Shown here one piece after another: positions 44,820 to 45,178 of a stretch of 64,000 nucleotides of DNA. The first letter of the stretch is position 1. Each line of letters opens with the position of its first letter. This stretch comes from Gammaproteobacteria bacterium (GTDB taxonomy: Bacteria > Pseudomonadota > Gammaproteobacteria > Eutrophobiales > Eutrophobiaceae). The position numbers and the translations under genes are program-made. The stretch is taken from NCBI GenBank assembly GCA_030829985.1, contig JAURNW010000011.1:79086-143085 (forward strand), written 5' to 3'. The notes beneath the pieces were generated by a model. That model did not search any database and was not told the DNA's origin. It saw nothing but the letters and a program-made list of their open reading frames with translations.

Positions 44820-44836
44820 ATTCCGAGAAGGAAGTC

Positions 44837-44911
44837 TTACTTATTGTTGATGTACATAGTAACTTCAAAACCAAAACGGATGTCGTTGTATTCAGGTGTT
44901 TCCCATTTCAT
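44837..44911 (-). CDS. pqqA: PqqA-like precursor peptide (24 aa), copy 1; too short to appear in the ORF track
   Basis: The minus strand encodes [24 protein letters not shown], preceded by AGGAG 8 nt upstream. The peptide matches the PqqA consensus (W..P.....(I/L)R.G(F/L)EVT.Y), including the conserved Glu and Tyr that are cross-linked in PQQ biogenesis. Confidence 0.7.
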   Translation of the reverse strand: [24 protein letters not shown]

Positions 44912-44945
44912 TGTCGTAATCTCCTGCTAAGTTAAAATTAATGTC

Positions 44946-45020
44946 TTATTTGTTGTTGATGTACATTGTGACTTCAAAACCAAAACGAATGTCGTTGTAT
45001 TCAGGTGTTTCCCATTTCAT
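44946..45020 (-). CDS. pqqA: PqqA-like precursor peptide (24 aa), copy 2
   Basis: Encodes the identical peptide [24 protein letters not shown]. It differs from copy 1 only at synonymous positions (ATC/ATT, GTT ACT/GTC ACA, AAT AAG/AAC AAA). It has its own GAGGA ribosome-binding site. Confidence 0.7.
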   Translation of the reverse strand: [24 protein letters not shown]

Positions 45021-45178
45021 TGTCGTATCCTCATCGTAAGTTAAGAATTAAGTATTAAACTTAAGTTAGCCTTAATAATGCAGATCGTGTGCCATTTTCT
45101 GTAATAAGAATAATTCTGTTTATTTTCAATGAGTTATTTAATCTTATACGGAATATCCGGTTGTGCATTATGTCTATT

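Follow-up and report, generated by a model that had tools for sequence, protein, structure and literature searches.

The 64-kb window, that is, the whole stretch of DNA that was analysed, contains two tandem genes for PqqA, the precursor peptide of pyrroloquinoline quinone (PQQ), placed between dsbA and a deoxyribodipyrimidine photolyase gene and away from the processing genes pqqBCDE. As a joint explanation of the data we consider it likely that both genes are functional and co-transcribed from a predicted sigma-54 promoter, that pqqBCDE are situated elsewhere in the genome, and that the separated genes belong to one unlinked regulon.

The tandem pqqA genes and their neighbourhood

The ORF listing contained two minus-strand ORFs of 24 codons (75 nt) each, at 45020-44946 (pqqA1, promoter-proximal) and 44911-44837 (pqqA2, distal), whose translated 24-aa peptides are identical, as an earlier note on this DNA had read from the letters. 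Tandem Repeats Finder reported a single array at 44834-45051 with a period of 109, 2.0 copies and 89% matches, which essentially agrees with the repeat span of 44836-45055 given before. The 109-bp repeat unit is composed of a 34-nt leader bearing a Shine-Dalgarno sequence and the 75-nt ORF. The Shine-Dalgarno sequence of pqqA1, GAGGA (45032-45028, minus strand), lies 7 nt before the first ATG and that of pqqA2, AGGAG (44925-44921, minus strand), 9 nt before the second; both were located as previously described, and both are kept in a close relative (L105). The public gene calls for the contig place zero genes between the photolyase gene and dsbA, and the pair is indeed unannotated in that gene set.

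The peptide matched the PqqA equivalog model TIGR02107, the check proposed for the supposed PqqA identity, with 47.1 bits, far over the curated cut-off of 20, along model positions 1-21 of 21; PF08042 concurred with 43.4 bits (cut-off 21.1, model positions 1-19 of 19). The E-X-X-X-Y core is present as Glu16-Val-Thr-Met-Tyr20. Both peptides are true members of the PqqA family. A degenerate DNA pattern for the PqqA core was also scanned over a species-level genome collection and gave at least 119 stretches; the core FGFEVTMY was built into this pattern, and its presence in these stretches is therefore not independent evidence. Among the matches listed, one group of PqqA peptides ends in ...YIYNR and occurs in Methylococcales, a second is found in Methylophaga and Methylophagaceae, and a third, ending in ...YINNK or ...YINNR, comes mostly from unnamed Gammaproteobacteria MAGs together with Methylohalomonas lacus. 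The window peptide falls in the YINNK/YINNR group.

When the coding sequences of pqqA1 and pqqA2 were compared, the 11.7 synonymous sites showed 5 differences and the 60.3 non-synonymous sites none; in the non-coding leaders of the two repeat units, 10 of 34 positions differ. Comparison with pqqA of L105, L043 and L029 likewise gave 0 non-synonymous changes, with 2-8 synonymous ones. Both copies are under purifying selection, and the earlier conclusion to this effect, drawn from differences at synonymous positions alone, is substantiated. One might take such very short ORFs, not called by public gene prediction, for chance ORFs or decaying pseudogenes within a non-coding repeat. However, the two copies differ at synonymous sites only, the Shine-Dalgarno sequence is intact before both, and the peptide is identical across genomes whose housekeeping proteins are just 57-71% identical. 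Moreover, a true pseudogene in the PqqA family (L142, see below) looks quite unlike these ORFs, and we strongly disfavour this reading, to which we leave next to no probability. This pair of copies, 109 bp apart, recurs in three independent public assemblies of the organism (NCBI MAG, ENA and JGI metagenome; L120, L122, L123) and is therefore not an assembly artefact.

The genes around the pqqA pair are housekeeping genes. They include yihA/engB (42630-43250, minus strand), a dihaem cytochrome c4-like gene (43407-44015), dsbA (44116-44745, plus strand), which is convergent with pqqA2, and the deoxyribodipyrimidine photolyase gene (45231-46658, minus strand), with purK, purE, fabI, an acetate kinase gene and a phosphate acetyltransferase gene as further neighbours. 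The gene table agrees with the flanks named before, dsbA and the photolyase gene. Between dsbA and pqqA2, folding revealed at 44817-44790 an intrinsic terminator hairpin that is bidirectional and flanked on each side by A and U runs; such a structure closing the unit had been placed at 44794-44819. The hairpin has a 12-bp stem (A6GGGACU/AGUCCCU6) and a 4-nt loop (-18.9 kcal/mol, z = -4.6), and as a G+C-containing hairpin with U runs on both strands it has the features of an intrinsic (Rho-independent) terminator. Judging by its sequence, it can end both the minus-strand pqqA transcript and that of the convergent plus-strand dsbA. A simple terminator scan missed this hairpin; the likely reason is that the A and U runs at its flanks can pair with each other and lengthen the stem into the U tail. 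The matches obtained in an Rfam scan of the region were all below gathering scores and merely reflected the terminator hairpin.

In a tblastn search of the 64-kb window for pqqB, pqqC, pqqD and pqqE, nothing better than E = 1.4 was obtained, and the claim that the pair is not adjacent to pqqBCDE, with no homologue in the window, holds. The PqqB and PqqC references came from Methylomicrobium lacus, those for PqqD and PqqE from a Paraburkholderia; their identities were verified, and the same four matched strongly in 71 of the 119 other pqqA stretches listed. In the Pfam tables, which covered the window plus 10 kb at either end, there were no pqq genes and no genes for a radical-SAM maturase, a PQQ-dependent dehydrogenase or a sigma-54 activator. 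The window corresponds to about 79811-143810 of a 228-kb contig of the MAG GCA_040265035.1, and these tables thus span 84 kb of that contig. Throughout this region, pqqA is not linked to pqqB-pqqC-pqqD-pqqE. Such linkage is usual for PqqA but not obligatory, and unlinked copies are documented (PMC4109929).

The missing linkage to pqqBCDE in the window is the one point in favour of regarding the peptides as substrates of a non-PQQ maturase, that is, as a distinct RiPP. Against this, the PqqA equivalog model is matched over its full length, E-X-X-X-Y core included, and the peptide differs at one residue from pqqB-linked copies of the same clade. Neither radical-SAM nor SPASM nor other maturase genes were found in the window and 10 kb on each side, and the upstream control elements described below are common to pqqA here and pqqB in relatives. 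A different RiPP maturase, as entertained in the earlier note, is therefore highly improbable.

Three further places in the window are recorded here as observations in their own right. An AMP-binding (acyl-CoA synthetase-like) gene at 19921-21457 (minus strand) appears as two overlapping public calls of 108 and 417 aa, which could mean that the gene is frameshifted or a pseudogene, or that the assembly is wrong here. At 53019-54658 (minus strand) two adjacent proteins of 273 aa and 252 aa (232 aa in the public calls) are without Pfam match. Their genes, present in L113 too, end a conserved cluster in which fatty-acid desaturase, amine-oxidase-like, DUF1365, cyclopropane-fatty-acid-synthase-like, DUF2878, DUF1295 and DUF1475 genes go ahead of them. 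A cluster at 440-4940, preceded by a C39-like peptidase gene, encodes a RimK/RLAN-type ATP-grasp protein, a GCS2 (glutamate-cysteine-ligase-like) protein, an N-formylglutamate-amidohydrolase-like protein and an M42-peptidase-like protein, and could constitute a small module of peptide or amide metabolism.

The upstream control region

A sigma-54-type -24/-12 element, TGGCACacgatCTGCA (TGGCAC-N5-CTGCA; 45094-45079, minus strand), begins 74 nt upstream of the pqqA1 ATG. Compared with the consensus TGGCAC-N5-TTGCW, TGGCACacgatCTGCA shows one departure, a C for the first T of TTGC, and it has the GG at -24, the GC at -12 and the exact spacing of a sigma-54 promoter. It is the only match to TGGCAY-N5-YTGCW on both strands of the window, where 0.44 would be expected in 64 kb; as at least one match occurred in 35 of 100 shuffles of the window, the lone match is not significant by itself. 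The predicted promoter falls outside the 109-bp repeat, and both cistrons would therefore share it. Folding gave no strong hairpin between pqqA1 and pqqA2.

Farther upstream, the minus strand carries two palindromes, TGGTTAtaagTAACCA at 45217-45202 (palindrome 1), a candidate site for an enhancer-binding protein, and TGGTTAcaaaTAACCA at 45195-45180 (palindrome 2), 22 bp from the first centre to centre. They are the only exact matches to TGGTTA-N4-TAACCA in the 64-kb window, for which the chance expectation is 0.19 even when up to one mismatch is allowed. Measured from the centre of the -24/-12 element, their own centres lie about 93 and about 115 bp farther upstream. Paired palindromes with a spacing of 21-23 bp also occur in L105, L113, L043, L006, L014, L028, L029, L050, L057, L062 and L087. 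The AT-rich stretch between the palindromes and the promoter contains an IHF-like site, TAACTCATTGAAA (YAA-N4-TTGAWW; 45136-45124, minus strand). Among the matches listed, an IHF-like match between palindromes and sigma-54 element is present at 7 of 24 loci of the clade, compared to 5 of 94 other loci, and it is found in the syntenic relatives L105, L113 and L043; the site lends weak support to the predicted control region. Taken together, the layout is that of paired palindromes at the distance expected of enhancers (about 80-150 bp) with a weakly supported IHF-like site.

The arrangement distinguishes the YINNK/YINNR clade from the other two groups. TGG-N10-CCA precedes pqqA at 23 of the 26 clade loci listed and GGCAY-N5-NNGC at 22, with both present at 21; they lie 160-255 nt and 58-106 nt upstream of the start codon, respectively, and TGG-N10-CCA has a background frequency of 0.10 per 300 nt. 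For the 55 Methylococcales-type loci listed, the corresponding counts are 1, 1 and 0, and for the 28 Methylophaga-type loci listed they are 0, 3 and 0. The same two elements are also found before pqqB. At two loci without pqqA upstream of pqqB, palindrome and -24/-12 element are kept in front of pqqB, as TGGTTTaataTAACCA and TGGCATgataaTCGCT in L125 (L125:5741-6000) and as TGGTTGttagCAGCCA and TGGCACgataaTCGCT in L135 (L135:7679-8000), and the pair of elements precedes pqqB-linked pqqA or its relic as well. That the elements are shared before pqqA and pqqB across the clade points to one shared regulon. From this pattern we infer that the upstream region is an enhancer-dependent sigma-54 promoter common to pqqA and pqqBCDE.

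The pqqA genes could also be real but transcribed from an unrecognised sigma-70-type promoter, with GG-N10-GC and the palindromes serving as the site of a repressor or other regulator. A single -24/-12 match in 64 kb is within chance, as seen in the shuffles, the AT-rich upstream region could conceal a weak -10 element, and no paper was found that links pqqA to RpoN. On the other hand, a promoter scan found no sigma-70-like match on the minus strand, and the -24/-12 element is kept at 58-106 nt upstream of pqqA in most of the listed clade loci while being nearly missing in the two other clades. The element itself drifts around the sigma-54 consensus, with diverging flanks. Palindromes at a distance of about 100 nt upstream, together with an AT-rich or IHF-like spacer, form the classical sigma-54 layout. 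We therefore regard sigma-70 control as unlikely, though it keeps some weight, and prefer the sigma-54 promoter. In the literature no report of sigma-54/RpoN control of pqqA was found, and such control, predicted from sequence, may be new.

A gene for an enhancer-binding protein (GAFTGA motif) was not found in the window, and it is absent beside most of the related loci, with one distant case in L062. The PQQ-dependent dehydrogenase gene found near pqqBCDE in relatives (L149, L150) is without the enhancer and sigma-54 elements, so that this enzyme is not an obvious member of the regulon, should the latter exist. A sigma-54 activator encoded near this dehydrogenase gene was considered as the pqqA regulator and rejected, as it adjoins acetone-carboxylase genes and cannot be tied to pqqA. 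In L149 (L149:1-7692), a SoxYZ-like gene, the gene of a 666-aa sigma-54 activator (MimR_N, GAF, Sigma54_activat) and an acetone-carboxylase gamma-subunit gene stand ahead of the gene for a 557-aa PQQ-dependent alcohol dehydrogenase close to pqqBCDE. This gene set hints at an isopropanol or acetone pathway.

Location of pqqA and pqqBCDE in relatives

The closest relative among the matches listed, L105, shares 83% nucleotide identity over 8 kb and the same gene order with the window. It holds both pqqA copies, each of which shares its flanking signature (the surroundings of the Shine-Dalgarno sequence and, at the stop, AAATAA or AAGTAA) with its counterpart in the window. This copy-for-copy correspondence indicates that the duplication predates the split of the two genomes and has been retained since. 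A single pqqA stands at the syntenic place in L113 (labelled Thiotrichaceae bacterium UBA7359) and in L043 (OZ271833.1, a complete 2.85-Mb chromosome), where the neighbouring proteins are 56-82% identical to those of the window. In these relatives pqqA adjoins dsbA, beside the photolyase gene or purK. Judged by L105, L113 and L043, the syntenic place is the ancestral one for pqqA in the lineage. Most of the other YINNK/YINNR loci listed also have pqqA without adjacent pqqB.

L043 differs from the window, L105 and L113 by a 587-aa ORF between dsbA and pqqA (L043:3711-5471), the C-terminal part of which resembles the window ORF 21767-22684, a PAS/GGDEF protein. Tandem pqqA pairs with identical products were also seen in Methylophagaceae MAGs (L011:5417-5775, L083:6639-6890, L085:380-738), two of the three lying immediately ahead of pqqB; pqqA has thus been duplicated in tandem recurrently. 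In Methylomicrobium lacus, a lone pqqA lies downstream of a cluster of genes for a PQQ-dehydrogenase-sized protein, a MoxJ-like protein and a cytochrome c (region L030:1341-4796), and a second pqqA heads pqqB-pqqC (region L032:4725-6571), with no match for pqqD or pqqE in that 8-kb block.

The places of pqqBCDE were sought in a protein collection with the PqqB fragment beside pqqA in L071 as the query; the best 120 matches listed, 80-99% identical to it, belong to a tight PqqB clade. Among the places listed for the PqqB clusters P0029, P0005 and P0008, none was the window genome's own pqqB. On the complete chromosome that contains L043, a PqqB gene (P0061) was found at 0.76-0.78 Mb (L135), followed by pqqC, pqqD and pqqE; in OZ271833.1, about 1.4 Mb thus separate pqqBCDE from the syntenic pqqA, which is placed at 2.16 Mb. 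Neither the 17-kb pqqBCDE locus of L135 nor any frame of the 322 nt upstream of its pqqB contained a PqqA-like ORF, and the pqqBCDE locus of a second genome type (L125-L134) is likewise without one. The flanks of pqqBCDE in L135 encode DUF6513, DUF447, 4HFCP_synth and Pterin_bind proteins, typical of tetrahydromethanopterin synthesis. In both L125 and L135 the cluster is embedded among tetrahydromethanopterin- and molybdopterin-synthesis genes.

A third genome type (L071, L136-138) has pqqA, with a peptide beginning MKWS[AT]..., directly upstream of pqqB; the PqqB proteins of the L071 and L136 genomes are at least 88% identical within the clade. In a fourth type (L142), a dead pqqA relic stands upstream of pqqB; its start codon ATG has become ATC, and it has Lys for the essential Glu and His for the essential Tyr. 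This relic (L142:9700-9880; cf. L136:1200-1335) lies between an intact sigma-54-type promoter with Shine-Dalgarno sequence and pqqB, which indicates that pqqB-linked pqqA is being lost in part of the clade. Every stage, linked pqqA, relic and complete loss, is represented in the sequences of the lineage. Such a series is readily understood if the precursor comes from the unlinked locus.

It could still be that the pair is a redundant extra, the genome also having a pqqA upstream of pqqBCDE and the tandem topping up the precursor. Linked pqqA does occur in the same PqqB clade (L071, L136-138), the G+C content of L136 (42.7%) is near the window's about 41%, and Methylophaga and Methylomicrobium carry linked as well as unlinked copies (L030/L032, L049/L091, L026/L074). 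However, in the sole relative with both loci readable in one genome (L043/L135) pqqB is without pqqA, L125 is likewise without a linked copy, and the dead relic of L142 is what would be expected if the unlinked locus had taken over. A redundant pair is thus a possibility to be taken seriously, though we lean against it. Beyond the matches listed, a second pqqA may also lie elsewhere in the L043 genome or in this one.

Given relatives without a working pqqB-linked pqqA, and given the synteny, we think that this locus is probably the working pqqA of the lineage and not a spare. Accepting a principal role in the lineage as probable, we add that the locus may be the main or only pqqA locus of this particular genome. 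The description of the pair in the earlier note as orphan or extra copies probably undersells them, considering the ancestral syntenic pqqA, pqqBCDE without pqqA in L135, and the relic in L142.

A model for PQQ precursor supply

In the canonical arrangement, pqqA heads a pqqABCDE(F) operon, as in Klebsiella pneumoniae, Pseudomonas and Methylorubrum extorquens. The peptides described here resemble PqqA of that operon in being of the 23-29 residue precursor type with a Glu-X-X-X-Tyr core and an N-terminal leader, and in matching the same family models. Unlike in the canonical operon, pqqA here is not the first gene of an operon but stands alone between dsbA and the photolyase gene, is tandem-duplicated, and has its own predicted promoter and terminator.

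Methylotrophs are already known to have pqqA genes in several copies and away from pqqBCDE, and the conserved sigma-54-type control region is the less familiar feature. Methylophilaceae have 3-12 pqqA copies with one pqqBCDE (PMC4109929), a precedent that bears out the comparison made earlier with extra or unlinked copies in some methylotrophs, and Beijerinckiaceae strain RH AL1 has three pqqA copies (bioRxiv 10.1101/2023.03.06.530795). As in those organisms, copies are scattered from pqqBCDE and pqqA genes outnumber the processing sets. In contrast to them, the present locus belongs to uncultured Gammaproteobacteria with peptides ending in ...YINNK, its unlinked position is syntenic across genera, and the pqqB-linked copy is lost or decayed in some relatives, so that the supposed orphan would now be the principal gene. 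For sigma-54, the nearest comparison is Methylobacillus flagellatus, where genes for enhancer-binding proteins adjoin xoxF, with a predicted sigma-54 promoter and a link to lanthanide uptake (PMC9988556). Both cases tie a sigma-54-type promoter to genes of PQQ-dependent alcohol oxidation. In M. flagellatus, though, the regulator gene is adjacent and control is directed at the dehydrogenase and at lanthanide uptake rather than at the making of PQQ, whereas the elements predicted here precede pqqA and pqqB and have no linked regulator gene.

In the model that we propose, where expression of the pair, its dependence on sigma-54, a set of pqqBCDE in this genome and the status of the pair as its sole pqqA locus are inferred parts, transcription would most likely start from the sigma-54 promoter at 45094-45079, activated via the two upstream palindromes, and end at the hairpin at 44817-44790, giving an mRNA of about 280 nt. 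From it, pqqA1 and pqqA2 would each be translated into a 24-residue PqqA precursor. PqqE with PqqD would then cross-link Glu16 and Tyr20, and PqqB and PqqC would process the product to PQQ, the processing genes pqqBCDE being sited elsewhere in the genome. The old duplication of the unit of Shine-Dalgarno sequence and ORF would have doubled the number of precursor cistrons per transcript, which fits a substrate consumed at one peptide per cofactor molecule. The unlinked pqqA and pqqBCDE would form one regulon under a putative enhancer-binding protein.

A more far-reaching reading extends to the widespread, mostly uncultured and probably methylotrophic Gammaproteobacteria with PqqA of the YINNK/YINNR type and with pqqBCDE next to genes for tetrahydromethanopterin synthesis. 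It supposes a split sigma-54 PQQ regulon, in which pqqA moved off pqqBCDE, the linked copy is being lost, the enhancer TGGTT-N6-AACCA and the -24/-12 element are kept in both places under one putative enhancer-binding protein, and the tandem is an adjustment of dosage. On this wider reading our confidence is evenly divided.

The findings bear on annotation, as standard gene calling misses these 75-nt pqqA genes. A genome like this one would appear to have PQQ-processing enzymes without a precursor or, judged from this contig alone, would appear to be without any PQQ pathway. What is known of PQQ chemistry is unchanged by these results. For the evolution of the pathway, the comparison of relatives traces a path that would lead from pqqB-linked pqqA through a relic to its loss, with the unlinked locus taking over. 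To our knowledge, the regulation of PQQ supply in marine methylotroph-like bacteria has hardly been studied, and the present locus offers a testable hypothesis, namely control by sigma-54 with a specific palindromic enhancer. If the split regulon is true, one activator would set precursor supply and processing capacity alike.
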